Positions 8,461-40,234 of a DNA stretch of 64,000 nucleotides are shown in pieces. The notes beneath the pieces are model-generated. The model did no database searches. It worked only from the letters and a program-made list of their open reading frames with translations, and was not told the DNA's origin. Source of the stretch: Marsupella aquatica. Taxonomy: Eukaryota; Plantae; Marchantiophyta. The stretch spans positions 21,393,543 through 21,457,542 of the forward strand of contig OZ316896.1 of the NCBI GenBank assembly GCA_973895155.1. The letters are read 5' to 3'. A program made the position numbers and the translations under genes. The first letter of the stretch is position 1; every line of letters begins with the position of its first letter.

Positions 8461-8868
8461 CCCCACTAATAAGAGATTTAACCATCTGCAAGGGAGAAAA
8501 ACCCCAAAAGGAAATTACCACTAAAGTACAAGGATCACAACAACAAATAAATGTGAATCCCAGAAAAACAACCTACAAATCATTCAAGGAGGGTCAAAAA
8601 CCCAAAAAGCGCGAAGCTCCACCATTCCCTCCCTCATTCCTTCCTCAAGGAGTTACGTAACCATCCACAAGGGTGAATAAATGTGAATCCCAGAAAAACA
8701 ACCTAAAAATCAGACTTCAGTCCACCTCCCGACCAAAGTTACTTTCCAAGTTTCCCAATAACTCCAGCCAACGCTTCCCAGTCTACTTTTCTTCTCATGC
8801 ATGACTCGTTGGTTTACTTATGCCACAGTTTCTGCACTAACAACATTTTCACAGACTCACATTAATTA

Positions 8869-17405: not shown

Positions 17406-20043
17406 ATGGGTTCGATCCGATTCGCTGGAGCAGCAGCTTCAGTGACAGCTCCCATATGTATTTTGGAGCATAATGCAAGCGGGCGGTGTAACTTGAAGAG
17501 CTCGGCTCTGTTCGGAGCTGGCTTGGACTTACCGATCTTGAACGCGAAGAATCGCTGGTCGACAGAGAGGTTCGCCTTCCAGACAGGTGGAGTAGCTCGT
17601 GCTGAAGGATCCGGGGAGGCAATTCCACAGTTTCCTGCCAGCCATAGATTCAAAAACGCCGACTTTGCATCCTTCGAGCAATTTCGACTTGCCAAAAAGA
17701 ACAGTGAGTATCTATTGTTGCCCATTCATGCGTCATGTAGTCCAGCTCTTGTTTCTCGACAATGACTCTCTTCTTCCAGTCATGGACGACGTCGGCCAGC
17801 ACTTTTCCCTTAATACCGTCAAATAGCCTCTTCATCCATGCATAATTTCTTTTTGGATTTTGGGTATAAACTTTAGCCTCATCATCCATTCATCATTTCT
17901 TTCTGGATTTTGGGTATAATCTTCCCCTGAAGGACAATGAAAAATAAGGATTCGTTCCTGCTTGACACTGCTCAATTGCCATTCAATTAGAAAGCACTTC
18001 TGGCTGGATTGCGTGTGAAGCTACGGCAAGATTGCTTTGTGAAAGGAGGCCGATGAGGTCCATGTCTGTACGAGCTACCTGTGGTGCCAGAATTTCCCTT
18101 TCGGAATCTGCCGTGTGCCTCCGAAGTTAGTTGGGCTTTGGTGTAGGGTTTTGGCCTTCAGCATTGGCTGTCTTCCTGCATGGTTGGTATGGTAGTTGAT
18201 GGATGTTTTGATTGGTTGAGGGCATGTTGTGAACGTTTTCGCTAATTGTCTCTTCTTGTTCAGTCAGTGGACATGGAATTGCTAAGGGTGGTTAGGAGCG
18301 TCCCTCTACCGACCTTAATACACTTGCATCTGGCATTTCATGACCAATTTTTTCGGGTGATATGCAGGGTACTCAAATGTCAAAAGCAGTATCATTGTTT
18401 TGGGACTGAGCGTGCACACTGCACCGGTATCAATGCGAGAAAAGTTGGCAGTTCCAGAGGCAGAGTGGCCACGAGCCATTGAAGAGTTATGTGAACAGAA
18501 TCACATAGAAGAGGCAGCCGTGCTGAGCACATGCAACCGTATGGAAATCTATGTTGTTGCGCTTTCTTGGAACTTAGGAGTACAGGAGGTCATTCAATGG
18601 ATGTCAAAGGTAATTTTGCACTCCAGTGATTCGTTGCGGAGTCTCGTGTTCATTGAATTTAGTCCTGTGCTTGGATTACTTGGCTCTCAGAAATGTTCTA
18701 GATCTTTACTCCTTACCTCGGTTCCATGGCATGAGTTTTCCTGAATGTACCGAGAAAGTCCGGACCCTACTCTTTTCCCACTCAGTGGTGACACTATTGT
18801 GCCACATACACTCGTTAGACATCACTGTAGGTAAACAAATGTCCCAATTAGATTTTGACGTTGTGAACTTATAACTTATAGTTCATTGGCACTGGGCTAC
18901 TGGATTGCGCAGACAAGCGGAGTCCAACCTCAAGATCTAAGGGAGCATCTCTTTGTGCTGCGTGACCGGGACGCAACACAGCATCTATTCCGGGTATCAT
19001 CAGGGCTGGATTCTCTTGTACTGGGTGAAGGCCAGATTCTCGCCCAGGTGAAACAAGTCTACAAAGTGGGCCAGTTAGCTCCGAAATTTGGACGCAATTT
19101 GAATGGGCTCTTCAAGCAAGCCATTACTGCCGGCAAGCGCGTCCGCTGTGAGACCAGCATTGCTGCGGGTGCTGTTTCTGTGAGTTCAGCAGCAGTTGAG
19201 CTTGCTGTCATGAAGCTTCCCCAGCAGGCAGTGGCAAGTGCTAACGTTGTCATTGTTGGGGCTGGAAAAATGTCTAAGCTGCTGGTGAAGCACCTGATCT
19301 CCAAAGGTTGCGATAAGATTGTGGTTGTTAACAGGTCAGAGGCGAGAGTATTAGATCTTCAAGCTGAGTTTTCAGAGGCTGAGCTCACATATCAGCCCCT
19401 ACCAGAGATGATGAGATGTGCAGGGGAAGCTCATGTCATATTTACGAGCACTGCTTCTGATGTTCCTTTGTTCTTCAAGGAGCATGTCGAGCAACTTGCT
19501 CCACCGTCTCAAACCTCGAATGGCATCAGGCACTTCATAGATATTTCAGTTCCCAGGAATGTCAGTACTTGTGTGGCGGAAGTGGGATCAGCACGGGTTT
19601 ACAACGTTGATGACTTGAAGGAAGTGGTTGAGGCAAATAAGGAGGAGCGCAAGAGGAAAGCCATTGAAGCACAAGCAATCATTGAAGAGGAGATGCAGAG
19701 TTTCGAATCTTGGAGGGATTCGCTGGAGACCGTACCCACGATAAAAAAACTGAGATCTTACGCAGAGGGCATTAGAACCTCCGAGCTGGAGAAATGTTTC
19801 GGAAAGATGGGAGATGATTTGACGAAGAAAAATCGCAGGCTCATAGAAGACCTTACAAGGGGCATAGTAAACAAGCTGCTGCATGGACCCATGCAACATC
19901 TGAGAAGCGATGGAACGGATGTGAGGACCGTAAGTGAGACTTTGGAGAATATGCATGCTCTGGAAAGAATGTTTGATTTGAAGTCCGATATGGCTGCCCT
20001 TGAGAAGCAGTTCAGGTCTGCTGAACAGCAAGTCAAACAATAG
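17406..20043 (+). CDS. HEMA: Glutamyl-tRNA reductase, plastid-targeted, 3 exons
   Basis: Exons 17406-17703, 18368-18609, 18913-20043 with GT-AG junctions and matching phases. Motifs [42 protein letters not shown] and DISVPRN; N-terminal transit-peptide-like extension. Confidence 0.96.
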
Positions 20044-21360: not shown

Positions 21361-21739
21361 TAGCCTTACCAACTGCCTCGAACAGTTCTGTCCACCCACT
21401 ACCAGAGACGCACCCTGTTAACAATGGGCTTGTATCCGGCACTACTAGGCACCCCCAATGGCAGTCAAACCCTCAGTCCAACCATTAGCCGATTTACCTG
21501 TTGCGTCACACATTGTAGCTTAGACCACTGTCTACCCACGGAATGCAGGTTACAAGTGTGTAACCATTTTGGAGGCACTTGCTATTCTCATAATCTATTT
21601 TCTGGACAGTAATTATGCACTAATGGAGGTCTGGGTAGAGGTTCTAGTCTGAACTTTGCTCCAGGAAAGCTCAAAACAGCTTCCTAGTTGCCGCCTATCA
21701 GGTTTTCTTCACTTTCTGGTCACAGGGTTACAAGCTAGT

Positions 21740-22083
21740 TGTTAGATATTGCTCTAGTATTGTGACTCTTGTGCTAACCACAGTTAGGCTAACTCGGGTT
21801 AGGACCTAGCTAAGGTTAGCGGTAGTGCTGTTGTGCATATAGCTAGGGCTGATGCCAGACCCTGGTGGAACTTAGGCTCATTGTTACGGAGCTAGTTGAG
21901 AGATAGGGAGAGCTTGTGATGTGGATGCTTGGTATGGCCGGTCGGCCTAGAGTGCAGTAAAGCTCTTGTGTGTTCCCGTGGACGTAGCCTCATGTGGAGG
22001 TGAACCACGTATCTCTCTGTGTCGACTATTGTGCGTTGGATGCTTCATGGGCTTGCCGTTGCGAATGTCGTCTATGCTCATCA
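21740..22083 (+). repeat. 5' LTR (344 bp)
   Basis: tgttag...ctcatca; I count 7 substitutions against the 3' LTR by eye (about 98% identity). Confidence 0.95.
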
Positions 22084-22085
22084 AG

Positions 22086-22097
22086 TGGTATCAGAGC
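22086..22097 (+). promoter_or_regulatory. Primer-binding site complementary to the 3' end of tRNA-iMet
   Basis: TGGTATCAGAGC, 2 nt after the 5' LTR. Confidence 0.95.
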
Positions 22098-23594
22098 ATG
22101 CCTGGGAGGTGACGAGGTTTTTTCATGACAGGTTTTTCCAGCATTCATTGTCGATGGTACATTCGGAGTTTCGTCGCATGAAACTCAAATGTATGTGGTT
22201 GTGCGGATAGGTTAGTGAGAGGGCTTTCTAAAGGTGGTTAGAACTCGTTGATCGGTATCCGTGGTGCGGAGGATTTGATGTTTGCATTGTTCAGGGTTTA
22301 TTCGTGTTCGACGGTATTTCGGGGGAGAAACCAGAGATCGTTTCTTCAACGGTGTGAGCTGTGCGGTGTGCGGGGCGTCGCATGTGATAGTTCAAGTTGA
22401 AGGTTGGAGCGTGCTGGTCATTTTGGTATCTAGTTTGCTGACGTTTGCGGAACGAGTGCGTCGTGACGAGTGAAGGAGGCGTTCTGATTTTTTGACAAGC
22501 TATGGTGCTTGTTTTTCCCTGAACCGGATTACTCGTCGTGACGCTTGACTCGGAGGAAGAAATGCAAAGTGCTGAGGCTCAACGGAGAGATCATGGCGAG
22601 AGGGTCGTTTTGAGTCCGGGATTGGCACTTGACGCGGAGTGAAGGCGACGCAACAGAAGTTCTTTCTCTGGTGGAGCTTCAGACGGCCGGTGTGTGCGTG
22701 CCGGTGCAATTCGAAACATTTTCATGTCAGCGGTCATCACTTTTCTCATTGGAAACCAAAGCGGAGGCGGCTGAGGTTTGTAACACGGCCTTTGTGTCAT
22801 TTTGGGCACATTTTTAAGGTTAGTTTAGGGCATTTTTTGCCCCAATACGGCCCCAATACCCGACAAACCAGGTTCACCATACGCCCCGGCGTGCACACAC
22901 CGGCCTCCCACACCCCTTTAAGCGTGGAAACGTGCTTTTTTGGGCCCAAATACGACCAAAAACGCCCATATACGGCCCAAATACGCAAAAATACGCATGT
23001 TTTGACCCCTTTAAACCCATTTTCTCACGTTTTTTGCTGTTTATACGCGATTCTGGCCGCGACTACGCGTGCCTTTGCCCCTTTAGAGTGTGTTTTTCTG
23101 AATTTATTTTTTTCTCTCCTCCTCCTCATTGGTTGTGCCTCATCCCGGGCCCTGTGACCCTCCGTTTTAACCGCTCCGACAGGGGGAACGGCCCCCTGTG
23201 AGCCCTGTTGGACTGTGCGGGAATATTCCCAAAAAATCAGAGAGCTCTTTTTTGGCCGTCCGACAAAGATTCCGTCCACCGAACGGTAACTTTTTTAGTT
23301 CTTTTTCGGCAAGGACGTTGCCACTGGAGTTAGCAACACGGCGCACCGATCACATCGCGATTCCGATGACGGGTTGTACTTGGTATTTTGGTTATTCTCC
23401 GAGGTGGTCAAAACGGGGGAGTTTCCCAAGGTTTTACCCACCTTGACCGAAATTTGAATAAATTTTCTGTCGAATTTTGATTTTGATTTTGGCTTTCAGT
23501 ATTGGACTCCTAGCTTCGTGGACTACGCGGCGGTGTTGAGTTTTGAGTTTTATGAGAAGTTTCGAAAAAAGACATTTTTTCGTGATTATTTCAT

Positions 23595-26500
23595 ATGAGT
23601 GACTCGGAGGATACTGGAAGAATTGGCGTCGGTGGAGCTTCAGGATCGCGACGATCAGACGGTGAGTCTGAGGAGGAGCTGCTACCATTTGAGGAGGAAC
23701 TAGTGATTTCGGTACGATCACTGGTGCGGCGTGCAGTGAAGGAAGCTGTGTTACTACCAGAGCTGTCGATAGTAGGGAAGAAGAGGGAGATGGCTAGATT
23801 CGGAGGAGTAAAGTTTGAGGTGGAGAAGTACGATGGTCGTACTGATTACTTGCTATGGGAGAAGCAAGTGAAGGGTGTTCTACGGGCCATGGGCTTGGCT
23901 CATCTGCTCTCTTTGTGAGAGCAGTATGATGGAGAGGAGGAGATTTCTTTGAGACAGTGGAGACAGGAGCAAGTGATTGCTGTCAATTGCAGTGATGCTA
24001 TATCTCAAGCCGCACATCATCAAGCAACTGGATGATTATGCAGATTGCATGTCACTGTTCAAGGCTCTAAGAGAGAAGTACTACCGGGAAGATGCGTTAG
24101 ACCGGCTGTACAAGAAGTTTCTCTTGATGAGCCTTAGGCTCAAGGAAGGGAGCAAGATGCAGGATCACCTAGATGAATTTGACAGCCTAGCGGTGGATCT
24201 GTCAAACCTGGGAAAAGGAGTTGAAGATGAGGATAAGGCCTTGCTTCTGCTAAGCTCCTTACCGTCGTCTTATCAGGGCTTGAAACAGGTGCTCTTGTAC
24301 AGAGATTTGAAGTCCATTTCGTATAATGAGGTGGTGAGCTCATTACTGTCTGATGATGCTCAGAAGAAGCTGGGTCAATCACAGACAACATCTTCTTCTG
24401 GCACTGCGTTGAATGTGAACAGGGGAAGAGCAGCGCAACGCACGAATGGGCAGAACAGGTTTAGATCTACATCACGGGGGAGATCTAAATCCAGAGGAAA
24501 ATTGCAAGAGAGGAAGCCTCTTGCATGTTGGAATTGTGGCAAGCCTGGCCACATGAAAAGGGATTGTCGAGTAAAGGTCCCTATTGCCTCTGCTAATGCG
24601 GTATCGAGCTCGCATGAGGTAGATTTACTTGATGATGATGACATATTGTGATATCAAGGTTATGCTCTCAACGTAGTGTCAAATCCAGGTAGTGATGACT
24701 GGATTCTAGATAGTGCATGTACTTTTCACATTTGCTCTAGGAAAGATTGTTTCAGTTCTTACACGGTTTCCAACGGGTCAGTGTTGATGGGAAATGGAAT
24801 CCCATGTCAAGTTGTTGGACTTGGATTTGTAAGATTTCAGATGTTTGATGGTGTTGTGAGAACGTTGAGGAATGTGAAACATATTCCCAGCATGATGAAA
24901 AATCTCATTTCACTTGGAGTTTTAGAGCAAATGGCCATCAGTGAAGCTCTGCTAATGGTGTCCTTCAGGTTTCAACTGGTACTAAAGTTGTATTGAAGGG
25001 AAAGAGACATAGCAATCTATACGTTTTGGAGGGCAGTGTCCCGGGCAGTGTAGTTTGTGATGAAGCCAATGTAACCTTATCTCATGAGGAGACGGCCCGG
25101 CTGTGGCACTTCCGTTTGGGCCACATGAGTGAAAAAGGTTTGGTTATTCTTCAGAAGAAAGGATTATTTTCTAATTTGCAATCTTGTAAGTTGGAATTTT
25201 GTGAGCACTGTGTGCTAGGAAAGCAGCACAGGAAACCCTTCGGAGTTGGAACTCACACCAGCAAGGAGGTACTTGAGTATGTACATAGTGATGTGTGGGG
25301 TCCAGCCCCTACTCCCTCATATTCTGGACGGTTATACTATGTCACGTTCATAGACGATTACTCAAGGTATGTGTGGATATACTTTCTACACAATAAGTCT
25401 GATGTTTTTGCCACTTTTAAGGAGTGGAAAGCCCAAGTTGAGAATCAGACTGGTAATAAGGTGAGATATCTTCGATCGGATAATGGCGGTGAATATAGTT
25501 CCGGGGAATTTGGAACGTATTGTAAGGAGCAGGGGATTACCCGTCATCTCACAACAAGTTATACTCCTCAACAGAATGGTGTTTCTGAGAGACTCAACCG
25601 AACACTATTGAACCGCTCGAGGAGTATGTTGAGTCAATCATGCTTACCACATGAGTTTTGGGCTGAAGCTATCAACACTGCAGCTTATTTGGTAAATTTT
25701 TCTCCATCCAGTTCTATTGGATTCAAAACACCATTTGAAATGAGGTACGGGCGTCCAGCAGATTACTCACATCTGAGGATTTTTGGATGTGATGCTTATG
25801 TGCTTACACCTTCCCAACTTCGATCCAAGCTGGAGTCCAAGTCGAAGAAGTGCATTTTCCTTGGTTATCAGTAAGGTGTGAAGGGTTATAGGTTATGGGA
25901 TCCAGTAACCTGTAAGCTAATTGTCAGTAGAGATGTGTCCTTTAATGAATCCAGATCATCAAAGGAGGGGGAGAGTTCTCAGGACTCCCATACTGACAAG
26001 GGGAAATCTCCCATCCCGGACCGGGTTGAGGGGGAGATTAGTCATGATGCAGTTCATGACAGGAGAGATGGAGAAGCTCCGGGCTTGGAGCTGGTTCCTG
26101 TGATGGAACAAGAGGAGCAAATTGTTGCTGAGGTACCTCAAATTCAATCAGCAGCAACAACAGATCAGCCTGAGTCGTCTACTAGAAGAACTTCCAGTCG
26201 TTCTACTAGAGCTCCTACCAGGTATGGTCAATGGGCAGACTCATCTAAGCTAGATGATATTGACATTGCACCTGATGAAGATGATATGGCTTTGATCTTG
26301 GAAGAAGGAGAGCCTTCTTCGTATAGTGAGGCTTGTGCTTCAGAGCAGAAGCATGAGTGGAATGCAGCAATGCAGAGGGAGTTGCAATCTTTGAGTGACA
26401 ACAAGACATGGGAGCTGGTGGAACTTCCAAGAGGTCAGCAAGTGGTGGACAGCAAATGGATTTACAAGTTGAAGGATAGTCCTTCAGAGGGTGGAGACAA

Positions 26501-26864
26501 GATCTACAAGGCAAGGCTTGTTGCCAAGGGATTCACTCAGGAGAAAGGAGTGGATTACAATGAGGTCTTTTCACCGGTTGCTAAGTATTCCACAATTCGG
26601 ATCTTGTGTCAGCTTGTTGTGTTTTTTGGTCTGGTGATGGATCAGATGGATGTTGTTACTGCTTTTCTCTATGGCAACTTGGAAGAGATGATCTTCATGA
26701 GACAGCCACTAGGCTTTATGAAGAAGGGCCAAGAGAACTTAGTTTGCAGATTGCTCAAGTCCTTGTATGGATTGAAGCAGTCTCCCAGACAGTGGAACAA
26801 GCGGTTTGATGATTTCATGCTTACTCAAGGTTTTACAAGGATGGTGTATGATCCTTGTGTGTAT
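23595..26864 (+). pseudogene. Copia gag-pol, 5' part (gag, protease, GAG-pre-integrase, integrase, N-terminal RT)
   Basis: KFEVEKYDG..W, zinc knuckle CWNCGKPGHMKRDC, protease WILDSACT, integrase HxxLGH..CEHC, HSDVWG, LRSDNGGEY, PQQNGVSER, and RT KARLVAKG, QMDVVTAFL, KSLYGLKQ. Frameshifts near 23915 and 24930; in-frame stops at 24649 and 25872. Confidence 0.93.
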
Positions 26865-26899
26865 ATCAGCCTATTCATTAAAAGTGTATTATTATTTGA

Positions 26900-27225
26900 T
26901 TTATGTACATTTGGGCAATGAAAAGTGTACTTTTGGGCTTGAAAAAATGTATATTTGGCCAATGAAAAGTGTACATTTGGGGATAGAAAAGTGTACAATT
27001 GGCCTAAAGAGTGTACATTTGGGCAATGAAAAGTGTATATTTGAACATCAAAATAGGTACATTTGGCTTTAAAAGTGTACATTTGAGTACATTTGGCCTA
27101 GAAAGTGTACATTTGAGTGAAAAAAACATACATTTGGCTTAAAAAGTGTACATTTAAGTGCATTTGGTCTAGAAAGTGTAGCTTTGAGTGCAACAAAGTG
27201 TACATTTGGCCTAAAAAGTGTACCA
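26900..27225 (+). repeat. Left subterminal repeat array (AAAGTGTACATTTGG, ~22-bp period)
   Basis: More than 12 copies of aaaagtgtacatttgg-like units next to the left TIR. Confidence 0.9.
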
Positions 27226-27470
27226 ACTCTTCTTATAATCATTTAAAAGAAAGGAATGAATAGAAAAATATTTTTAATTATGCAAAAAAAGTAAACATTC
27301 ATATTCATAACAATCAAAAGTTTAGAAAATGAGGAGATAGTATAACTAACACTCAATGGCATGGTCTCACATTAAAACTATTAAAATAGTAAATAACTAT
27401 TAGGTACTTGTTACTATCTAAGTAACTATCTATTTAATAATTATTATAGCTTCACAAGTAACAACTAAGT

Positions 27471-30400
27471 CTACTTGTCCATCCTTTGGAGATAACTTTG
27501 GATAGTTTGTAGAACATTTCGAGGAATCTTCAAACCTCTGCCCGCCATGTTTTCTTCTTTCATGCCAGATTTAAAACCATACATTGCAGAATTTGCATAC
27601 TGCCAATGTTGAGCGTTCTCACCAAACCCTGGATCTCGCTCCCATGTCTTAGTGGACATGAAGCAGTTTAGATACCGTGCACTCTCAGTCACATCAAGTT
27701 TAGAGTGTTTAGGCCTCCACCATTCGACTGGAAACATTGGAGCATATTGTTGAGGCAGAGGAGGGTTTGTTGGAGATGTAGTTGGGACTTCATGCTTAGG
27801 GTCAACCGAACCCAAAGCTCTCACCAACCAGAAATGACCTCCACCATTTTTATTCTCCCAGTCATCCTCGGGTCGAAGAAATACAAAGTTCCCTTGACAA
27901 ATATCCTGTAGGGGAATCCACCGTCCTTGTTCTCTCTCAGCTCGAGATCCAACAAATGGTGCCGCTTGATCTTCCATCTCTTCCAAGACCTCATTTTGAA
28001 GAGCCGTCATCTCCGCATTCTCCTCATCTTCACTTGGAGGACCACTTTGATCCGGTTGGTTGACCTTGTAACTAGTGCCATGGTTAGTCTTAGGCCAAAA
28101 TCTATTTTCAAGGGAAATTGAGTACTTCCCTCCCCTTCTAGGGCAAGCCCATTTGTCAACAACTCCACAATTCTCTCCCAATATTTCACAAGAGGAAATT
28201 TTTCCTTATATGCTATAGATGTCTCATCAGTGCAACTCCTTCTCAAAAAATCAAGGTACTTGGTAAGAAATGGGATAATCTCTTCAGATTTTTTGTGTAT
28301 CTCTCCAATGGATTTAGCTAAGGGCTCTCCACTAGGTAAAAGAAGGGAATTTGTTGTCAGATCTGTTGCCCAAATGCACCTTCCACCAACTGGAGCCCAA
28401 GCTTGCTTTACATGGGACTTATACTGAAATATTGGTACATTATCTCTCATAGAGAAAAGAAATGATACAGGTTTTGAGTGACCTTGAATATCTTTAACGT
28501 TGAAAGTTTGAAGATATTCTTTGTAAGATGCAACTTCTTGTATCAATCTGGGAACTGGATGAATGCTCTCACATTCCCAAACCTCTGCCATAAGAGCAAG
28601 GAGAGTTGCAACTTCCTTGTGCTGAACTTGATATGATACCTTCGAAAAGAGTGCATCAACATCTTCGTGCGTATGACCAACCATAAGAAAAGACATTTGA
28701 ACAGTTTCAAATACTCCTCTACTCACAAGCTCACTACAAAATGCCATGACAGTCTGGTTTTTGTTATCCTTTGCTGAGTTATCCATTTGCAATGTTAGGT
28801 GCCTTGGCAAGGGCTTGAAAGATGGACTGCCTTGTTCCCCATGCATGTCCCCTCCTTGATCCTCACCAAGTTGGGTGGAGACCGTCTCCGTCTGACTCTC
28901 GGCTGCATCTTCAGAACCAATATACCTATTCATTGGAATACTCTTTGGTTCCAAATATCCCTTAAAAAATGCATCAAAGTCAAGAAGGGCTTGAAAGAAA
29001 GGTCTATGAGGTTCCAAATAAAGGCCATCCAACATGTCACCTGTCTTGTCTCCATTGTACTCTTCAAGGTCTCGAAGACACTTAGCCAAGGATGTCACCG
29101 TGAAATCGGCATCTCCTGGCCAAAGGCCAGTGACACTAAAGTGTGCATAGACTCCTGGATCCCTTCCGTGGGTCAACATCCCTGTCAAAGCAATAGGTAG
29201 CGGCATCCCATGACCCGAAAGCGATTTAGGAGTACTAACCATTTTTGGAATCCACGTCTTTGCTTGATCCATCTTGTCGTGAATGATGCAAAGATATTCC
29301 CCTGGATGTTGCTTAGCCATCACTCGATGAGCATAGTAAACATATCTACGTGACATTTGCTCACAAAGATGTTGCGCTCGTTTTTCTTCAATTTCAGCAC
29401 GTTCTTTTTTCCTTCTTTCTCGCATCAAACTATCTTTGTATTCACAACAAAGAGTACACTTGGCAAATGCACCATCTTTATGGAAACTGAAGTTTGCGAA
29501 TGATTTGCTCCAAATCTTGTACAGAGTATTCTCTATAACTGGAGGAAGCCCCTCTTCCTTCATCTTTGTTCTCACATCTTCCAAAATCTCCAGCTTCTTG
29601 TAACATGCTGGAAGACGATATTCAGTGGAGTCTGTCCCATGAGCCCCAGCATAAGGTATATGAGGCATGGGCTCTGCATTTTGAGTCAAAAAATCCTCCA
29701 ACAGAGTTCGTGCATGCAAGGTATTTGACCTTGTTTTCATGGAGCCCGTGTTTCCATGGAACCCAATTTTGCAGCCCTCCACATATCTCCTTTTGTAGTC
29801 ATAATATTTTGTGTGGCTAAAGCCATGGATGATTGCAAATGCATGTCTACATACGACCATACCCTTGAGAACATGGTGCCCCTTATCACGAACATCATCT
29901 TCTCTGTAGTGGAAGAGGTTGAAAATGTGTGATGTTTTTGACTCACTAGACATCCCGTGAAATTCTATCCGAATATCTTCTATGTCTTCTCTTGGCATAG
30001 TCAGACAACATTTCTGCTTGCAACAATTCTCTCTTTTAATTTCATCAATCGAAGCTTCCGTTGTTTTTGAAACTGCCTTGGTTTCCAATAGCCTTCTCTT
30101 CTTTTCAATCGGATCTACATGAGTCCTCTTGTTGAAATTGTATGGCCTTGTGCGCAACATTCCCCTATCATTTACATTTGGATAGAGATCATCCCTATCC
30201 ACCGACTCCATCCTCTCTGAACCTTCAACCAAAATGTCCGACAAAAATTTCCCATTTGCAAGTAGTTTTGTTGAATCAATTCGCCACCGAACCAAAGTAA
30301 TTACTCCCCTATGGAAGTTGGGAAAGTATTGTGATTCCACCACATCTTTCACAGCAATCCCTACATGGTCCTCACCAAGCATTTCATCGTCAACTGCCGC

Positions 30401-31230
30401 CGTTTCTTGAGGCACAGTGATGGTCCCCGTGGCAACCCTATTGGTTCGATCTGAACCGATGTATAGTTCGACCAACTCTGACATCCAATTTGACCGTTGG
30501 AAATAGTCACAATTAGTTTTAGAAATTTCAACTGAGGGAGACTCCACAACAAAACTCCGCTCTATGTTGATATCATCACCCGCATCCTTTTTTGAGAAAC
30601 TCTTTCTACTTCGGACATCTGCCACGTCCCAGAGAACCCATGAGTCTTTTGCCTCGTCAATTGTTTCAGCCCCACTGTGTTTGTAAGGTAAAACCCTACT
30701 CCCATGAATGACATCAGTGACCCTCACACTGATCCGTGATTCACCAAGTAAAATGTTGTGACATCTTTCCATTGGATTTGTATTGAAAACAACTCCAAGG
30801 GCTACACAACACCCAAAGATGAACATTTCAACCTCATCCCCTTGCCTCGGAGTGATCGATGAGTCCTCCTCTACAATTGGATTTTTCTCCAAATTACTCT
30901 CGGGTCTATTTGAACAACTACCTACACTAATGCATTTTTGAGAATTTGTTGTCGTGGATAGATATGCGCAAGACAAATCCCAAATAACGCAAGAATCAAT
31001 GGCATCAAAAAGGTTTTCTGCCCGAGGCATCGGAAATGGTAGTTTTGTGGTTCGGTCAAAAACTTTCTCAATGAGAACTCCCATTCGATTCTCTCTCAAC
31101 AATATCTTTTGAACACTATCTTGCGGGTTGACTTTTTGAACTGTCCCGCTCGCAACATCGTAACCATCATTTGTCAATATCACATTGTCTCCTCTCAAAA
31201 ATATTCCGGTCATTGCTATAACGTATTCAC
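27471..31230 (-). CDS. Sola-like (DUF7869-type) DDD transposase, frameshifted near 28110
   Basis: ORF 28007..31213 plus continuation 27471..~28110. Cys motifs CCKQKCC, VCRHAF..HG and KCTLC; catalytic-core motifs HDKMDQ, LQMDNSAKDNKN and FLMVGHTHEDVDALFS. An acceptor-like site at 31231-31232 implies an upstream exon. Confidence 0.85.
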
Positions 31231-31405
31231 CTGCACAATTTTAAATGTAAAGTATTAGTTAAGAATGGTCCCAACTAGGAAGCACATAGGTGTCAACCCT
31301 CTCCAAGGACAGTGCGCATATCGGGATTATCCCCATCAAGCAAAATAATAGGTCCCCAAAAAGTCCCTATCTAGCCCTAAGATCCCTGATCCCAATTTAG
31401 ACGTC

Positions 31406-32080
31406 GGATAGGGATGATCCCTGTCCAAACGGTGGACAGGGATTGGACAGGGATGATCCCTGTCCAAACGACGGATAGGGTCTGTCAGTGTATAAATGGC
31501 GAACAAGGATCATCCCTACCTAAACGGCGGATAGTGTCTGTCACTGTCCAAAAGGCGGACACGCCTGATCCCTGTCCAAATGGTGGATCGGGTCTATTCT
31601 CTGTCCAACCAACTGACAGGGATGATTCAAGGAAACTTTTCATATTGGGGTCCAATCAAGCAAATACCTCAAACGGCGGACAGGGATCATCCGGAGAACG
31701 ACCGCGGACACGGATCCCTATTGAAAGGGTAGATAGGGATCATCCCTATCAAAACGGCGGACAGGGACCATCCCTATCCAAACGGTGGACAGGGATCATC
31801 CCTATCCAAATGGCGGACAGGGATCATCCCCATCCAAACAGCGAATACGGATCATTATCCAACCAGAGGATCCAAACGGCGAATACGGATCATTATCCAA
31901 CCAGAGGATCCAAACTGTAGAGGATCCAATAAAGTGCTATAGTTCATATGGTCCTCTACAGTACTCTACGGTGGACAGGGATCATCCCTATCCAAATATT
32001 GGACAGGGATCATCCCTATCCAAACAGCAGATAGAGATGATCCCTATCCAAATAGCAAACAGGGATGACCCCTGTACGGA
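31406..32080. repeat. Array of 21-bp palindromes with 28-bp period
   Basis: GGACAGGGAT(G/C)ATCCCT(G/A)TCC plus a 7-bp linker (AAACGGC-like). Copies start at 31406, 31445, 31473, 31501, 31529, 31557, 31585, 31678, 31731, 31759, 31787, 31815, 31973, 32001, 32029 and 32057; some are degenerate. Confidence 0.93.
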
Positions 32081-33001
32081 CAATTGACTCTACACACTAA
32101 TTTAATGTTTGAGCAAAGAACGGTTGGATTGAGATTATCCCAATCGTGAGTTGGGCTGGGATTTTTTCACTTCAACCTTAACTTAGATATAGTAATTCCT
32201 AAATTTGCGGATATCAATGGAATATGCTACAATTCTATAATTAGGTTTAAAGTTACCTGTAATGGAAATGATTCTTGAACCCAAAACTCAATTTAGTTTA
32301 TGTTGTCAAACCAAGGATTAAAATACTGTGTTGAAGGGGTAGTTATCAGTAACCTGGTAAACTAAATGCTTCAGGGGTGTGGAAGAAATTAAAACTAGAT
32401 GTTCTGTCTGGAAAACAAGAGTGTCTCAATGGGGCTCCGTAATGAACGGACCTGGTTGAGGAACAGAACAAAAATCTAGAAATGAAAATACCAAATGAGG
32501 ACCAGCCGGACAACCCCAAGTATCTTATACCAGTTGTTGAAGATCGCCCTTATGGATAAGGCGATGCGTGATCAGCCTTAAGCAACGGCGAGTGGATTAG
32601 GTCGGGCGGCGCACTTTAGGGCAGCCGTGCATTTAGGGTTTTCCACTCGCCTCGGCCTCCCACGTGTTCAGTGTGCCTTGCCTCGCCTCGGGGGGGGGGG
32701 TAAAGGAGGCAGGAGGTCCCACTTGGGCCTCATTCTTCATTCCCTCCTCGCTCCTCGCTCACTCTCCTCCTCGCTTGCTCTCCTCCCTCCTCCGTCCGCT
32801 CCTCCTCTTCTCCACTCCTGCTCTTGCGCTCCTTTGCTCGCTCCTCCGCCTCATTCGCTTCCAATCTCCTTCCGCTCCGACGCCTTTGCACTCCTTCGCT
32901 TTGCCTCCGCACTAAAGTTTATCCCCATAGCCGCCACGTTAATTGCCCTAGATCTAACGCTCTGCAATCCTCCATGTGTCCATAAGGCCACGTGTCACAC
33001 G

Positions 33002-36000
33002 ATGGAGCCATCCAGACCTATTCCAATGTGTCTCGTCAGTGAGCCAACAGAGGAGACAGACCTCTCATCCATTGAGGACGTGGTGGAGACGGCCCTCAAG
33101 GATTCCAGAGCCTTTCAATCGCTCAATCCAAGTGAGTATCCCAGTAACAAGTTGAATATTTGTGTGGTGGACAGAGATGATCCCTGTCCAAGTAGAGTCC
33201 AAATAGAAGATAGTCATCTTTATTAGGAATTGGACAAAGATGATCTCTATCCAAATGGATGGAGATCATCCCTGTCCAATTGCATAGATATCATTTATTT
33301 CCAAACTGACGATAGAGGATGTCCTATCAGACGATGCTGAGGACCTTTATTAGGAATTGGATAGAGATGATCCCTGTCCAAGTAGAGGATAGAGATGATA
33401 ATAACGATCATCAGTATCCTCTCATCGAACAGAGATGATCTTTATTACAAATTGGACAAAGATCATCGCTGTCCAAATAGAGGATAGAGATGATCACTGT
33501 CCAATTTTTGTCAATTACAAAAGTAAGATTTCCAAACTAATATGCCTGGATGGGACTATTGCAGGGAGCTATCTAAATGCATTGAAACCACAGATTTCAG
33601 ACGCAGATTGCTCTGAGGGAGTCTTGTTGGAGCAGAGCAGAGAAGATTTTTGTTGGGGCCTTGAGTTCTCCAGAGTTGATTTTGATTTCCTTAGCACGTC
33701 AACGAGACGGGATCCCATTTTGTGCATAAAGGTCAGAACTGCAGATCAGGAGACTCTTGTACTCGGACCTGTAGTCTTCATTGGAATTGAAGGAAGAGGG
33801 TTTGTTTCCGTCATTCTTGAGCTCCATGAAAGGATACGATGGGTTAAACTACATCTACCATCAAAGGCGTATTCTTCAGAATTCAATGTTGAGTGGTCTG
33901 CAGCTGGAGAACTTGGCGTGTTGGCAATGGGCTTTTTCCCTAAGTCGTATTCAACTCAAAAGGTGACTCTTGGAGTGAAGGGGATTCTTCCACTTGACAT
34001 CATGTATGGGTTTCAATATGTGAAGCTTAATATGCATAAACACCAAGGGAATTATACATTTTCGGTGACATGGATTTTAAATAATTTGCTTGACAAGGCA
34101 GGATTCCTATCATCGGAATCAGGTGTTTTCCTTGACAAGAAAATTATATTTGCGGAGGAGTTTGCAATGGATAATGCAAAAAAGTGGGTAGAATCATTAC
34201 CCAAGCCTACAAGTGCTGCACCAATAGTGGTGAACAAGCCTACAAATGTTGCACTAGTAGTGGTGAACAAGCCTCCAGTAGTTGTTAACAAAGAAGTTCC
34301 GAAGCCTAGAAAAATATCTCAGGAGACAACAACCGGGACTGCAGGAACAACGGCCGGGATAGCCTCCAAACAAGTGGTAGGGAAGCAAAGACAAAGAGAG
34401 AAGAAGGAGCGCAAGAAAACTGAGACACTGCCGAAGGAACCCGAGAAGAAGCCAGTAAAGAAGAAACATAAAACTGACAAGACTATTGCGCGGTCAACTC
34501 CGACGGACGTACAGATGCTCCCAGAGGATGAGGGAGACAAACTTGATGCCCCGGAGGAGAAGAAGGTCTTAGAAGGGAATGATGTTCTCCAAAGAATAGA
34601 GCAGTACTATACTTTTGGGATAAATTAAATATTTTCTATTCCAGTGGAGAAAATTTATCCAGCTCCGGCAAGGTTATGTTACAGGATGCTCAACAGTGCC
34701 CATGTGAAGCACATAGCCGAATCCATGGTGAAAAACCCTGGACATGAACCTCACGTTGCGGACCTTCTTCCTTACAATCCAAAACTTAGAAATCTACTTC
34801 ATTTTGACAGCACGGAGAACGACCGCAAAGACCTTCTTGCAGGAGTGAAGAAAGGCGAGATTGTTTTCCTTGCCGTCAGTGGGCAACATTCTGCTAGGGC
34901 GGCCAAATGGGTTCTTGAGTGGGCCGAAACGGATGCCAAGCTCACAATTTTGGCAAAAAAGTTAAAATATAGGAAGGCTAGATTATTGTCAAACCTTACG
35001 CCATCGGCTATACTGGTTGAGCACTCAATGAGATCAAATGCCATCAATTCTTTGATGGTGTTTCAATCGTGCTTCAAAGATACAATTGTTCATGCAAGAA
35101 AACAATTCCTTGAAACTGGAAGACCAAGAAAGCCAAAGCACGGGGACAACAAATCAAACGCCCAAGAGAGTCAAAAATTTCAGGTGAGAAACATTTTTCT
35201 TGTTTGGACAGAGATGGTCTCTGTCCAAGAGTGTGACCGTCCGTTACATTGATTTTAGTTCAATATGTTTTTGGTTATGACTTGGATGGAGATGGTCTCT
35301 GTCCAAGAGTGAGACCTTCCATTATGTAGATTTTACTTCATTCTACTTTTGGTTATGGCTTGGACGGAGATGGTCTCTGTCCAAGAGTGAGACCTTCCAT
35401 TCTGTAGATTTTACTTCATTCTACTTTTGGTTATGGCTTGGACGGAGATGGTCTCTGTCCAAGCAAGCGATTGTGTGTTGTCAAATCTCATTGATTGTAG
35501 ATAACTTACAACATTCTCCCTAATTTTTGACTGTAGGATTATCTGGCATTGGCAAGGATGACCATGGGGAGAAAAGACTTGAAAAATGTATACTGGTTAC
35601 TTTTTGCCGAGAATGATCTTTTCGAGTTATGGCGATTAGTGTGCCAAATGTGGATTGATGGAAAACTTCTTGATGGGGGTGGTACACAGGGAAACAAAAG
35701 GTCCGAAAAGGCGATAACCGTCGCCATGTTTTGTTATTTTGATGGTGAAATCTCAAATAGAGATTTGACCAGAATTTTGAACAAGGTGAAGTCGGGTCAG
35801 ATTTTATTGAAAAAAGATCCGACTAATAAGTCAGATGTTCCAGCGATGGAGGAGTTTGCAAAGGAGGTGAAGATATTGATCAAATTGAAGTCTCGTATTG
35901 GAGATTACTACTTCAAGAAGGATCCAAAACACTTCCCAGCAGATACTGATTGGGCTAAAGTGATTGAAGTCCTCCCATTATTGGGTCCCGATTCGGAGTT

Positions 36001-37906
36001 GAACAGGTGCCGAAGAGCAGCTGGCGATGTATGGTTGACAAATTTGTTGAAGTCGAATCATACAAAGGAGAGTGAGATATTGCCAATGACATTGGTGATG
36101 CATCTAGATGATATTTACTGTCAAAAGTTTGGCGGTGGGACAAGTTCTCGGACCCAGCCGTGGGTCACATTTTTTAGTACCAACCTAATGAAGACTGTGG
36201 ATCCGGAGTCGTTGGAAGAACAATCTCCAACATGCCCTCTTGCAATTGTTGATTTCAGCCGACTTCAGCAAAAAGAGTGGACTGAAGTAGAGATTTTGGT
36301 CCTCTTCCAATATATAGTAGAGCTACCACGGAATCCTACCATTGTTGTGATGATAACTGTCCATCCGGGTTATCTTGTACTGAATGTCCTAAGCGCTCTT
36401 CGTAAATTAGGACATTCAAAAACTCTGAGTATTCACATTGAGTATGGGAGTTATTACCGAGATGATCAACCTCACCCTCAGGACTCATGTTGGAAGGGAG
36501 GAATAGAAGAGGTTATCTTTGCCGGAATTTCTCGCGAGGAGAACGTCAGCTGGGATGAAGTGTTCAAGCCCAACCAAATGAAGCCAAAATGGGTGTACGG
36601 TGAAAAGGATATTGATTTCGTGGTTGAGAAGGTCAAGGGAAAGGGAAAGGCCAAGGACGCGGAGGAGGAGTCATTGCATGAAGATCTAAAAAATATGATG
36701 ACCCCAGAAGAGGCGGCAATCCTTTTGCACATGGCACCTCGATTTGAGACTGTCGGCGCTCGGGGTGGGTGGGTGAATCCTCACGCCAAACCCACACGGA
36801 TGATCCAAAAGATCATCCAAACACTGTCCGAGCTGGGGGATTTGATTCTTGACTTTTTCTCTGGCGGTCAAGTGATGAAGGCATCCCTTTTTTCTCAACG
36901 TGAATGTTTTGTTTATTGTGACTCTCAACATGAGAGACATTTTGTGGAAGCATACGCTTCGTTCCTTTGTGAGAAGGTTCCCACCATCAAAGATCGTTAT
37001 GATCGCTATGTCGGTGGAAGTTCTAGACATTGGGAACCCTCTTCTGCCGCTGTTGCTATTGAGGATGAATCAGATGGTGATCAAGAAGATGGAGCTGACC
37101 AATCAGTCAAAGACGATGGGCCATCAGAGGCATACGTGAAGAATTTGGATGACTGAGTTGGCGAGGGTGAAAATATTGACCTTGTGGACGACGATATGAT
37201 TGTTGGATCTGCACCTTGTAGTTCACCAATTACAGATGCTGCCCCCATGGGCCCCAACGAGGGCCATTATGATGATAACTTGGATAGAGATGGTCTCCAT
37301 CCACAAGTGCCTGGACAAGAGATGGAAGTTGATACTTTTGAAAAACTTTCTTCAAACAACCTTCTCAATCAAGGTGCGGAGAGGCATGGTGAGTCCAATG
37401 AACTCGACACATTGGGATTGAGACCACAGCCCATCCAAATAGCTGACATTCCCGTGAATGAAGCAAGTGCATCCACGACTGCTGACAACCAGGCAGGTGC
37501 TTCAATTTGTCCCAATACACTCTTTTCCGCTTCTGATGACAAATTGGTGTTTGTTCGATCACAATCAAGAAGTCCCGTTATCCTTCCACTCTCAAAAAAG
37601 AAAGGGAAGAGAGTAGGATCAACTGGATATAAGTCACTTGAATATGATTGTCAATGTTACGTGTGGAAAAGTGGACCCGATGTAGGAACTGAAGTTGCGT
37701 TGGATGTTGCTCAATCAATTTTGAACAATGACTCGTACAAAAAGCACAAGAAAGATCCAACTTATAGAAGTGGAGAATTGGGATTGATAACTCCGGTTTG
37801 GTCTGCACCTTATTGGGTAGAGGAGAGTACCTCCGATGTCAATTATGAGATCCAACAAGAACTCGGTGATGATATCTTGATTGATGAATATGGATCGCAT
37901 TGTTAG
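33002..37906 (+). CDS. Transposon cargo gene: ParB/Srx-like domain fused to a beta-class N6A/N4C DNA methyltransferase-like domain (two premature stops in this copy)
   Basis: Proposed exons 33002-33131, ~33601-35183 and 35537-37906. Intron 35184-35536 is GT-AG with phase 0 at both ends; the first intron's acceptor is less certain. ORF pieces on either side of TAA 34626 and TGA 37154 are in the same frame. ParB-like segment: R.LN..HV..IAESM..NP...FLAVSGQHS..AA. MTase-like segment: NPHAKP...QKIIQTLSELGDLILDFFSGG..MKAS...R. Confidence 0.72.
33169..33503. repeat. Second cluster of the 21-bp palindrome (inferred intron 1 of the cargo gene)
   Basis: ggacagagatgatccctgtcc-like copies at 33169, 33232, 33257, 33359, 33387, 33454 and 33482. 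Confidence 0.88.
35206..35462. repeat. 4 x 78-bp tandem repeat, each unit carrying the palindrome variant (intron 2 of the cargo gene)
   Basis: ttggacagagatggtctctgtccaa-like copies; palindrome cores start at 35206, 35284, 35362 and 35440. Confidence 0.9.
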
Positions 37907-38529
37907 CCAAGGTCTAGATTGAGCGATGTGACCTTATCAATTTGATATAATATAGTCTGTATAATTATACTTCAAGTTTAACAATTAGAGCATCGTATAT
38001 GTAGTTTACGTCCTGAGGCAGAACTTGACGATGCACTTGTCACGTCACTTGCTAAAGCATTTGTAGGAAGGGACTATTCAGGTCCGCATAGAGAAAATCC
38101 CAGACACTTTTTGCGAGAGATTATAGCCATTAGGAACAACACCACCAAGTTTCAGCTCCTTGAAGATAAAGGGACTTGCAACCGTGACACTAGGGTAGAT
38201 AGTAAAGGAGACAGGGGCACGTGCTCAAATACACATTGTAAGGAGCACTTTGTTTAGAGATATGACTCATGTTAAGCCCCTTAGATAGAAGAAATACATT
38301 GTAAATTTGGAGATAATTGTATATTATTTTATAATCTATTTGGAGTTATGTCATTTTGTTCACACATATTCAAGGGTTTATTTGTGATGAAATGTTTTTA
38401 TAAGTATGATCTCTATCCTACTATTCTTTGTGAATTCATAAATAATGATCTCTATCCTATTATTCTTTGTGAATCAATAAATGATATAATATGTATTATT
38501 TATTAATATAATACTTATATGATTTGGCC

Positions 38530-38612
38530 TATAAAGTGTACATTTAGAGACCAAAAAGTGTACATTTGGGTTTCTTAAAGTGTACATTTGGGGACATGAA
38601 AGTGTACATTTC
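38530..38612 (+). repeat. Right subterminal repeats (AAAGTGTACATTT x4)
   Basis: Four copies next to the right TIR, on the same strand as the left array. Confidence 0.88.
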
Positions 38613-38666
38613 AAGACTGATTTGTGAACAAAAGAAAATACACTTTTAATGAATAGGCTGATGTAT

Positions 38667-39683
38667 ACGAAATCAGTCAAGAATGATGTATTTGGTTTCA
38701 TCATTATGGTTATCTATGTGGATGACATGTTGATTGTGGCTAAAGATCAATCTGAGGTTGACAGTCTCAAGGCGAAATTGAGTGTTGAATTCATGATGAA
38801 GGATCTTGGTAAGGCCAAGAGAATCTTAGGGATGGAGATTTTTAGGAACTCTGAGACTGGACAGTTGTGCTTGAGTCAAGGCCAGTATGAGAGGAAAGTA
38901 CTTGCACGATTCAACATGGAAAATTGTAAGCCAGTGAGTATTCCTTTAGCTTCACATTTTAAGTTATCATTGGCTTTCTCTCCTACGGATGCTGTGGAGA
39001 AAGGTCTGATGGCTAAGATTCCTTATGAGAAGGCAGTAGACAGTTTGATGTATTTGATGACTTGTACTAGGCCTGACTTGGCCCTAGCGATGGGCAAGGT
39101 TAGCAGATTCATGTCAAATCCATGGAAGATACATTGGGAAGCTGTGAAGTGGATTCTCAGGTATTTGAAGGGAACACATGACTATGGATTACTATTTGAT
39201 AACAGATCAAATAGAACGTTAGTTGGCTATGTAGATTCTGACTATGGAGGCTGTCTGGATACAAGGAGATCTACAACTGGGTTTGTATACACTCTTGGAG
39301 GAGGATGTATCAGTTGGAAATCTATCTTGCAGAAGTGCATATCTCAGTCTACTACAAAAGCAGAGTATGTTGCAGCAGCAGAAGCTGCAAAGGAAGCAAT
39401 TTGGTTGGATAAGTTGATCGCGGATATGGGTTTAGAGCATGGAAAAATGACTCTAAACTGTGATACTCAGAGTGCTCTTCACTTGGCTGCTAACCAGGTG
39501 ATGGATAGCAGGGTGAAGCACATTGATATCAAGTACCATTTTATCAGGCAAGTAGTGTCTGATAAAACTTTTGAGCTAGTCAAGATTGATGGAAAGCTCA
39601 ATCCCGCTGATGCTTTTACCAAAGTGATTCCTTTGGAGAGTTTCTCAAGACACCGTGCTACTTTGCAGGTTTTGCAGTTGTAG
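38667..39683 (+). pseudogene. Copia pol, 3' part (RT catalytic YVDD and RNase H)
   Basis: IYVDDML, MKDLG..KRILGM, TRPDLA, GYVDSDYGG, RRSTTG, CDTQSA and KHIDIKYHFIR. Confidence 0.95.
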
Positions 39684-39879
39684 TGCAAGTAGAGTTATTT
39701 AGCAATGTGTGACTATTTGTATATGGATTACTTATTCCTGTTAGGCTACAGCTTAGTTCTAGTTAACCCTTAGTTAACCCTTGTGGTTTTTAGGGGGAGA
39801 CCTGGTTTGGTGATTGTCTAGAACTTCCCGCTGAGGATTCCATATGGTAGCATTTAGTCCAGTCCCCAAGACAAGAGTC

Positions 39880-39890
39880 AAGGGGGAGTT
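39880..39890 (+). promoter_or_regulatory. Polypurine tract
   Basis: AAGGGGGAG(TT) immediately before the 3' LTR. Confidence 0.9.
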
Positions 39891-40234
39891 TGTTAGATAT
39901 TGCTCTAGTCTTGTGACTCTTGTGCTAACCATAGTTAGGCTAACTCGGGTTAGGACCTAGCTAAGGTTAGCGGTAGTGCTGTTATGCATATAGCCAGGGC
40001 TGATGCCAGACCCTGGTGGAACTTAGGCTCATTGTTACGGAGCTAGTTGAGAGATAGGGAGAGCTTGTGTTGTGGATGCTTGGTATGGCCGGTCGGCCTA
40101 GAGTGCAGTAAAGCTCTTGTGTGTTCCCGTGGACGTAGCCTCATGTGGAGGTGAACCACGTATCTCTCTGTGTCGACTATTGTGCGTTGGATGGTTCATG
40201 GGCTTGCTGTTGCGAATGTCGTCTATGCTCATCA
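39891..40234 (+). repeat. 3' LTR (344 bp)
   Basis: tgttag...ctcatca, near-identical to 21740-22083. Confidence 0.95.

Follow-up and report, generated by a model that had tools for sequence, protein, structure and literature searches.

A Sola-like transposon of a liverwort with a ParB- and methyltransferase-like accessory gene and arrays of its own palindrome

The analyzed window, a 64,000-bp stretch of the liverwort Marsupella aquatica, contains a Sola-like DNA transposon in which a transposase gene and an accessory gene diverge from a region flanked by arrays of a 21-bp palindrome. We propose, with a probability of about 0.45, that the accessory protein has lost catalysis and serves as a site-specific DNA-binding helper through which its transposon family stays expressed. 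It would bind the family's own palindromes, as a predicted dimer, and in the bound state would keep both element genes expressed against host silencing, not by writing 4mC or 6mA; the transposase would use the terminal inverted repeats (TIRs) and a separate class of 22-bp subterminal repeats. The element is a land-plant variant, likely enzymatically dead, of systems already published from algae.

The transposon, its insertion site and its genes

The transposon spans positions 26865-38662 (11,798 bp), with all 26 bases of the two TIRs identical and GTAT on either flank. It lies within a Copia retrotransposon whose reverse-transcriptase frame is restored once the transposon and one GTAT are removed in silico: a young Copia has been split in frame. 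Empty sites show the mobility of the transposon: runs X1 and X3 contain contig joints at which 11,802 bases are skipped, and a single X7 contig spans both flanks. The TIR identity, the restored Copia frame and the empty sites confirm the precise bounds drawn in the earlier note. The transposon belongs to a multi-copy family that is abundant and recently active; copy number and co-occurrence were judged from relatives and from public run contigs, and summed contig depth was left out as a copy-number measure. The features are as follows.

21739..40234, + strand: interrupted host Copia retrotransposon, with 345-bp LTRs that are 97.97% identical
26861..26864: left target site duplication, GTAT, 4 bp, based on comparison of the duplications and the empty site
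26865..26890, + strand: left terminal inverted repeat, 26 bp
26900..27230, + strand: 13 copies of a 22-bp subterminal repeat around AAARTGTACATTT at the left end, likely sites for the transposase
27471..31213, - strand: Sola-like DDD transposase, ~1,250 codons, DUF7869, with acidic motifs; frameshift near 28104 in the window copy
31233..32259: array of 14 21-bp palindromes, mostly at 28-bp spacing; it precedes the transposase ATG and lies in a promoter or a 5'UTR intron
32260..33001: stretch between the divergent genes, rich in GC and CpG and free of palindromes; probably a bidirectional promoter
33002..33131, + strand: accessory gene exon 1, a prediction based on ATG, donor site and frame; covered by no homolog
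33132..33564, + strand: accessory gene predicted intron 1, with 8 palindromes
33565..35183, + strand: accessory gene exon 2, with a stop at 34626 and the ParB-like region from ~34629 (SGQHS where ParB has GxxR)
35184..35536, + strand: accessory gene intron 2, with 4 palindromes in 78-bp units; position shared with the L001 intron, spanned by P0002 and P0113
35537..37906, + strand: accessory gene exon 3, with a helical region, beta-class amino-methyltransferase fold, acidic linker (stop at 37154) and conserved C-terminal region
38533..38611, + strand: right subterminal 22-bp repeats, 4 copies
38637..38662, - strand: right terminal inverted repeat, 26 bp
38663..38666: right target site duplication, GTAT

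DUF7869 is a domain that we take to be the Sola transposase. Its acidic motifs in the window copy, IHDKMD (aa 644), QMDNS (aa 809) and HEDVD (aa 849), are conserved across relatives. Together with the 4-bp target site duplication (GTAT) and the 26-bp perfect TIRs, these three motifs support the earlier assignment to a Sola-like DDD transposase. Reported TIR lengths in Sola range from 11 to 1,124 bp, and a DDD transposase is given as the defining feature of the superfamily in the available text of PMC10741241. A scan of viral contigs with the transposase alignment returned no locus.

The divergent layout of two genes described earlier stands, and the spliced cargo gene then put at ~1,350 codons is corrected to a model of 1,372 codons. 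The window copy is defective, because this gene has in-frame stops at codons 398 and 1123 and the transposase has one frameshift. The first stop reads as a sense codon in 92-98% of the depth in runs X2-X4 and in 42% in X1. In the ParB-like part, 17 of the 33 listed differences are synonymous against 8.7 expected (P 0.001), and comparison of sequences indicates a family-conserved gene under purifying selection. Scans with the accessory alignment found one locus in metagenome contigs and none in genome or viral contigs; a search for longer homologs, limited to 1,578-4,505 aa, returned none and is uninformative. We considered a captured host-gene fragment and rejected it, because the gene has its full length, shows selection and is found repeatedly next to the transposase.

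The accessory protein

The predicted fold of the accessory protein aligns with CcrM over 208 residues (residues 202-487; Z 17.8, rmsd 3.8). A methyltransferase fold is also recovered by Foldseek (E 1.2e-6), and Pfam PF01555 matches at E 5.5e-5, below its cut-off. The model has a beta-class amino-methyltransferase fold and the corresponding motif order, in which the catalytic region precedes motif I. Motif IV would be DFSR (36242-36262) and motif I DFFSGGQ (36851-36871). The DPPY-type motif IV, [DNS]PP[YFW], occurs in 0 of 153 family sequences, 45 of which cover the position. These 45 aligned rows read DFSR, DFGR, DLTH and similar, with the Asp retained in nearly all and followed by PP or an aromatic residue in none. 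Most of 61 rows conserve motif I as DFFSGG(Q/V), which lacks the final Gly of FxGxG. The protein thus appears catalytically dead and probably writes no 4mC or 6mA, because no family sequence has a DPPY-type motif; the marking of element copies suggested in the earlier note is correspondingly less well supported, with DPPY retained in none of the 45 aligned members. Since the whole family has lost DPPY, the predicted function is to bind and not to write methyl marks.

The second half of the label ParB-methyltransferase agrees with the predicted fold, shared with CcrM; the ParB-like region is weakly suggested. In atlas features the region lies at 0.93 to DUF3723 clusters (31% of members) and at 0.90 to a ParB_N cluster (35%), and its profile aligns with five canonical ParBs in hhalign at E 0.046, against 0.63 for a reversed control. 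No match was found in Pfam, PHROGs or PDB sequences, nor in phages with the ParB-like piece. A single-sequence structure model of this piece reached an unusable pLDDT of 41.6 and gave only background-level fold matches. The arginine of the NTP-binding GxxR P-motif is missing, with SGQHS, SGAHS, GGLHT or GGNNS at the corresponding place.

The palindromes and their reader

The palindrome GGAYAGRGATSATCYCTRTCC has 21 sites in the window at up to 2 mismatches, 22 at up to 3, 27 at up to 4 and 29 at up to 5, which agrees with the roughly 30 copies counted earlier. All 29 fall within the transposon and none in the remaining 52 kb, whereas the mean expectation over 30 Markov simulations is 0 to 0.2. 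Fourteen lie upstream of the transposase ATG, 8 in intron 1 and 4 in intron 2 of the accessory gene, and one each in the transposase CDS, accessory-gene exon 3 and the 3' region. Non-coding DNA therefore holds 26 of the 29, flanking the shared promoter region on both sides (GC 0.58 and CpG o/e 0.83 at 32500-33000) or in the next intron. The earlier placement in introns of both genes is borne out for the accessory gene; on the transposase side the largest array precedes the ATG, in a 5'UTR intron or promoter. The two arms of each palindrome vary largely independently, as expected of protein half-sites: 22 of 38 are paired in the window against 17.1 after shuffling (P 0.07), and 39 of 69 against 37.8 in the moss-type palindrome (P 0.41). 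The 22-bp subterminal repeats, a class absent from the earlier note, number 13 copies on the left, 4 on the right, 2 internal and 1 outside the element.

Relatives carry both the linkage and the arrays. Of the 12 accessory genes in Riccia sorocarpa, 4 have one of the 72 listed transposase tags no more than 5 locus tags away, where 0.3 are expected (P about 1.5e-4), which shows linkage of the two genes there; the other 8 have no nearby transposase among those listed, the list being incomplete. The methyltransferase-like piece in P0278 was kept out of this count because the accessory-gene profile does not detect it and it may be a separate insertion. Arrays occur in 4 of 15 transposase loci. L002 and L003 have 19 and 6 copies of a different 21-mer. 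The arrays of L011 and L014 adjoin a divergent ParB-like exon and consist of two further palindromes, with 57 copies in L011 (48 of them in one minisatellite) and 30 in L014. Different lineages thus carry different, family-specific palindromes, in moss-type and animal-type elements alike. Three of these four array-bearing elements show weak traces of the same accessory gene (E 0.003 to 0.07 in L002). The other 11 transposase loci (1.5-6.4 kb) revealed no repeat family above 4 copies, with a detector that also missed the L011 and L014 arrays. The L001 intron homologous to accessory intron 2 contains no palindrome. In L031, a ParB-like ORF has neither transposase nor palindrome array detected within 20 kb; an apparent array there was rejected as a 63-bp minisatellite. 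Both the L001 intron and the L031 ORF count against the preferred reading.

The accessory protein, not the transposase, would be the reader of the palindromes: two repeat classes, one at the ends and one inside, together with two candidate DNA-binding proteins, were counted in its favor. It is unlikely that the palindromes are internal transposase sites, for autoregulation or as synapsis enhancers, with the accessory protein acting otherwise, for instance as a transposition cofactor. Every array found does adjoin a DUF7869 transposase, in L011 and L014 the arrays are placed near the outer ends, as transposase sites would be, and the N-terminal domains of the transposase are repeated, one with a weak Transposase_23 match in a relative (E 0.03). 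Separate subterminal repeats are, however, already present in the window element, whose palindromes avoid the ends and fill the accessory-gene introns. The L003 array, with no accessory gene seen in its 4.3-kb contig, might also point to the transposase, but this absence is uninformative because the contig ends 900 bases past the transposase. An active, non-canonical amino-methyltransferase that marks the palindromes or their surroundings with 4mC or 6mA, the role suggested for an Ectocarpus protein, is quite unlikely. The full beta-class fold in the model, the conserved motif I and motif IV Asp, GATC in 16 of 22 palindrome cores, and a Riccia transposase model to which a more distant methyltransferase-like piece (DMPTG) is joined would all suit such an enzyme; set against it are the residues missing after the Asp and at the end of FxGxG, and the TSPPY kept by the active 4mC enzymes of Marchantia in the available text of bioRxiv 10.1101/2021.02.12.428880.

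Operator-like palindromes directly downstream of both predicted promoters could also serve an autorepressor or copy-number control, in which the bound accessory protein shuts down both genes as it accumulates, and the accessible text of bioRxiv 10.1101/2025.10.10.680097 describes ParB-fold proteins as regulators of gene expression in bacterial mobile elements. We regard this as improbable: dozens of sites spread over introns would be easier to reconcile with spreading or a role in chromatin than with a simple operator, and the family's abundance and recent activity speak against it. It is highly improbable that no protein reads the arrays and that they are neutral minisatellites or act by forming RNA hairpins or DNA cruciforms. 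Many copies do sit in tandem units of 28, 43, 50 or 78 bp, and the excess of arm pairing in the window is borderline, but one core persists across different unit lengths and in lone copies whose flanks are unrelated, palindromic cores have been retained independently by three lineages of this kind of element, and Rfam gave two matches, both under the cut-off, with no family reaching it. Under the preferred reading of a DNA-binding helper, the outcome would be activation or anti-silencing, by analogy with VANC. A wider version is doubtful: an old cross-kingdom Sola module shared by liverworts, mosses, invertebrate animals and brown algae. In this version a ParB-methyltransferase of phage origin would have lost its two signature catalytic motifs and turned into a reprogrammable reader that co-evolves with each family's private palindrome and de-silences its own element. 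If true, the module would stand beside VANC as a second and independent case of sequence-specific anti-silencing, and as the first for bryophytes and animals. The sites differ among relatives, and therefore a cross-specificity comparison, each protein against each palindrome, is feasible in a transformable liverwort or moss.

Comparison with known systems

The comparisons below follow the available text of the sources. Phage ParB-N6_N4 methyltransferase fusions (bioRxiv 10.1101/2025.10.10.680097; PMC4738411) have the same domain order, ParB-like and then beta-class methyltransferase, and such a fusion is a plausible origin of the accessory gene; they keep the GxxR P-motif and predicted methylase activity, whereas the window gene has both signature motifs altered and contains introns. 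Marchantia MpDN4MT1a/b (bioRxiv 10.1101/2021.02.12.428880) share the beta-class fold in a liverwort, but are host genes outside transposons with intact TSPPY and demonstrated 4mC activity. The DIRS1 methyltransferase domain and METTL14 (PMC4738411) are precedents for the retention of an amino-methyltransferase fold that is likely inactive, in one case within a transposon, although they belong to other methyltransferase clades and have neither a ParB-like region nor palindrome arrays in the text available.

Arabidopsis VANDAL elements (PMC5735166) combine an accessory gene, VANC, with family-specific short motifs tandemly amplified in introns and upstream regions. The layout of the window palindromes is that described for VANC21 sites, and the window family likewise has family-specific motifs amplified in non-coding tandem repeats. 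VANDALs differ in being Mutator-type, in their 8-9-base non-palindromic motifs and in a function shown experimentally, and the VANC protein is probably unrelated to the accessory protein, whose predicted fold is that of a methyltransferase. A second class, of ParB-type accessory genes, has been put forward from algae, and the accessible text reports no test of it. Plavaka elements of Bostrychia (PAG2 and PAG3; bioRxiv 10.1101/2025.02.11.637652) place a ParB-like accessory protein next to tandem inverted-repeat arrays, and that study already proposes self-binding and draws the VANDAL comparison. They are red algal, with an EnSpm/Plavaka transposase; the ParB-like domain is fused to a 2OG oxygenase, and the methylase is on a separate gene, fused to SET.

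The closest counterpart is Sola1-1_Ec32 of Ectocarpus (PMC12477816), a Sola element with a 4-bp target site duplication and an opposite-strand accessory gene for a 1,104-aa protein, ParB-like plus N4C/N6A methyltransferase, whose architecture is by description like that in the window; it was proposed to bind and modify its own element. Because these algal counterparts with the same self-binding idea are already published, the window element is not the new system that the earlier note had suggested. Our literature search found no paper on land plants, a lost DPPY motif or family-specific palindromes for such modules. The window element is a compact example from a land plant whose 21-bp site is defined, beside moss-type and animal-type relatives with other sites. 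Sola1-1_Ec32 differs in its brown algal host, its 21.5-kb length and its 282-bp TIR; its domain is treated as an active methylase, with no palindrome arrays mentioned in the available text, whereas the window family has no DPPY. A binding-only function would correct the published methylation guess, at least for this branch.

The element and its insertion site

The element is bounded by 26 identical bases of terminal inverted repeat (TIR) with GTAT at either side, and its excision in silico leaves a Copia reverse transcriptase reading frame intact again, confirming the transposon bounds, perfect TIRs and target site duplication (TSD) proposed in the earlier note. The insertion was probably recent, because the LTRs of the interrupted Copia are 97.97% identical. 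An empty site is seen in contigs of three of four sequencing runs, and three runs display some depth across all 30 bins of the stretch. The features discussed are as follows.

8869-10620 (-): polyphenol oxidase host gene, a single long frame
15418-15576: near-perfect hairpin (arms of about 75 bp, -117.6 kcal/mol), either a MITE or a small-RNA hairpin; its MIR847 match is weak, far under the cut-off
18859-20043 (+): glutamyl-tRNA reductase exon of a host gene
21739-40234: young Copia element (98% LTR identity) that the transposon splits; it has in-frame stops
26865-38662: the Sola-like element, with transposase (-) and divergent accessory gene (+)
about 30250-31213 (-): transposase N-terminus, where a small domain occurs in as many as three repeats

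The transposase matches DUF7869 (E 1.6e-43) and carries three acidic motifs; its DDD, with the 4-bp TSD and TIRs, agrees at superfamily level with the Sola definition in the available text of a review (PMC10741241). Its relatives at E <= 0.001 number 83: Riccia supplies many of them and Ceratodon two, and invertebrates contribute distant ones. The nearest named relatives of both element genes come from Calypogeia fissa and Riccia sorocarpa, two liverworts, so that the host, a plant by its polyphenol oxidase and glutamyl-tRNA reductase genes, is likely to be a liverwort. The window copy has a frameshift near 28104; copies lacking it make up 2975 of 3810 in depth in run X1, 4304 of 16173 in X3 and 36 of 36 in X6. 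The small N-terminal domain is a precomputed PF26133 in relatives, with a weak Transposase_23 match in one protein (P0266), and moss-type relatives apparently have one copy.

The accessory gene

The accessory gene is modelled with 1,372 codons in three exons, two stops interrupting the window copy; intron 2 lies at an identical position in the contig locus L001 and is spanned by protein relatives P0002 and P0113. At the first stop, 92-98% of the depth in runs X2-X4 and 42% in X1 has a sense codon, and past the second stop four homologs continue to the same C-terminal motif. Of 106 differences in the gene, 40 are listed, 33 of them in the ParB-like part; among these 33, the expected number of synonymous changes is 8.7 and the observed number 17 (P 0.001). 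The gene is therefore maintained in the family; on the same grounds, a captured gene fragment was rejected as its origin. A NIF/FCP1-like phosphatase domain closes two Riccia models, P0154 (E 2e-13) and P0199 (E 3e-12), through either a true fusion or the merging of gene models; such a Pol II CTD-phosphatase-like domain would suit a role in transcription.

The gene had been described as a ParB-methyltransferase, a label whose methyltransferase half holds for the predicted fold but not for the catalytic motif. The C-terminal half is predicted to fold as a beta-class amino-methyltransferase: the top Foldseek matches to the model, which was built from 6 sequences and has a mean pLDDT of 59.4, are M.MboIIa and CcrM, the latter aligning at Z 17.8 and rmsd 3.8 over 208 residues. 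A profile search returned 212 clusters at E <= 0.001. The [DNS]PP[YFW] motif occurs in none of the 153 family sequences examined. At the motif IV position, located from the strand position in the predicted model and not by residue-level superposition, the catalytic strand reads DFSR, DFGR, DLTH and similar in 45 covering sequences, and motif I is DFFSGG, the final Gly being absent. The domain is probably catalytically dead; likely inactive folds of like kind are described for DIRS1 elements and METTL14 in the available part of PMC4738411. In the Riccia gene model P0278 (R1sor_024984), a transposase is joined with a methyltransferase-like segment that is more distant; the motifs of this segment, DMPTG and DFAGGWG, come nearer the canonical pattern, and it possibly represents a second accessory clade.

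The ParB half of the label is a lead only. Atlas features relate the region to DUF3723 clusters (0.93), an auxiliary gene of Starship elements in the paper text available, and to ParB_N clusters (0.90), but it has no match in Pfam, PHROGs or PDB sequences, and its profile reaches E 0.046 against five canonical ParBs. The arginine of GxxR, required for nucleotide binding in ParB according to the accessible text of bioRxiv 10.1101/2025.10.10.680097, is replaced by SGQHS-type motifs. Full fusions of this region with the methyltransferase fold are found in Riccia and unnamed records.

Linkage and palindromes across lineages

The transposase and accessory gene are linked. Of 12 accessory genes in Riccia sorocarpa, 4 have one of at least 72 transposase tags no more than five locus tags away, against 0.3 expected (P about 1.5e-4, under uniform and local-shift nulls alike), and only 2.9% of the transposases lie as close to each other; the remaining 8 have no neighbour among the transposases listed. 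A 47-row tree, from which no row was lost, places the linked transposases in three liverwort subclades and, with weak support, in the moss clade.

The reported abundance of one 21-bp palindrome, about 30 copies, is borne out: 29 occur at <=5 mismatches (21 at <=2), all within the element, and none elsewhere in the window; simulations gave 0 to 0.2. The transposase ATG has 14 of them upstream, introns 1 and 2 of the accessory gene contain 8 and 4, and the other 3 are scattered. The element ends carry a distinct 22-bp subterminal repeat.

Judged from their sequences, the palindromes are family-specific. Loci L002 and L003, whose transposases cluster with Ceratodon at 100/99 in the same tree, carry a different 21-mer on both sides of the transposase, 19 times in L002 and 6 times in L003; it is compatible with the window palindrome at just 3 of its 21 positions. 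A convergent 82-aa frame at the end of L002 weakly resembles motif I and has no Pfam match. The intron-rich L011 and L014, with transposases nearest to invertebrate proteins, each have a divergent exon that matches the ParB-like region with E 8.9e-5 and probability 59.6, weaker matches downstream, and palindromes of their own sequence (57 and 30 copies); in L014 a 45-bp inverted repeat encloses both genes. These four contigs come from bacterial genome bins yet look eukaryotic (spliced genes, moss- or invertebrate-type transposases), probably through binning contamination. As a counterpoint, L031 has a ParB-like frame (8225-8773, -) with no DUF7869 transposase or palindrome array detected in 20 kb, and may carry it on another kind of element; the homologous intron of L001, too, has no palindrome.

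Possible role and known systems

Two repeat classes alongside two proteins suggest that the transposase would take the element ends and the accessory protein the internal palindromes. That the palindromes are themselves transposase sites is unlikely in the light of this pairing, although the L011 and L014 arrays lie toward the outer ends. The arms of the window palindromes vary largely independently, a pattern expected more of dimer half-sites than of hairpins; neutral or structural repeats are the least probable account. The arrays sit either side of the CpG-rich stretch separating the divergent genes, a placement resembling that of the sites of VANC21, an Arabidopsis VANDAL anti-silencing protein, in introns and upstream regions (PMC5735166, as far as its text was available).

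Repeat classes, independent arms and VANC21-like placement together favour, at roughly 45%, an accessory protein that is a catalytically dead reader and would keep its own family expressed. An active, non-canonical writer would agree with the predicted fold but not with the missing catalytic motif, and is less probable than transposase sites; an autorepressor, which would also bind the palindromes, is a slightly poorer prospect again.

A search of full-text literature, with Repbase reports and subscription journals outside its scope, returned no report of a bryophyte or animal module, a lost catalytic motif or family-specific Sola palindromes. The boldest reading, a cross-kingdom pseudo-enzyme anti-silencing system, is rather improbable. 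The earlier suggestion of a new system has to be withdrawn for the basic combination. In the available text of PMC12477816, Sola1-1_Ec32 has an opposite-strand 1,104-aa gene with ParB-like and N4C/N6A methyltransferase parts, for which self-binding and modification are proposed; a term search of five of its supplementary files found no ParB text. Similarly, in the accessible part of bioRxiv 10.1101/2025.02.11.637652, which cites Iyer 2011 for green algae, the ParB-like PAG3, a Plavaka accessory gene of red algae, adjoins tandem inverted repeats.
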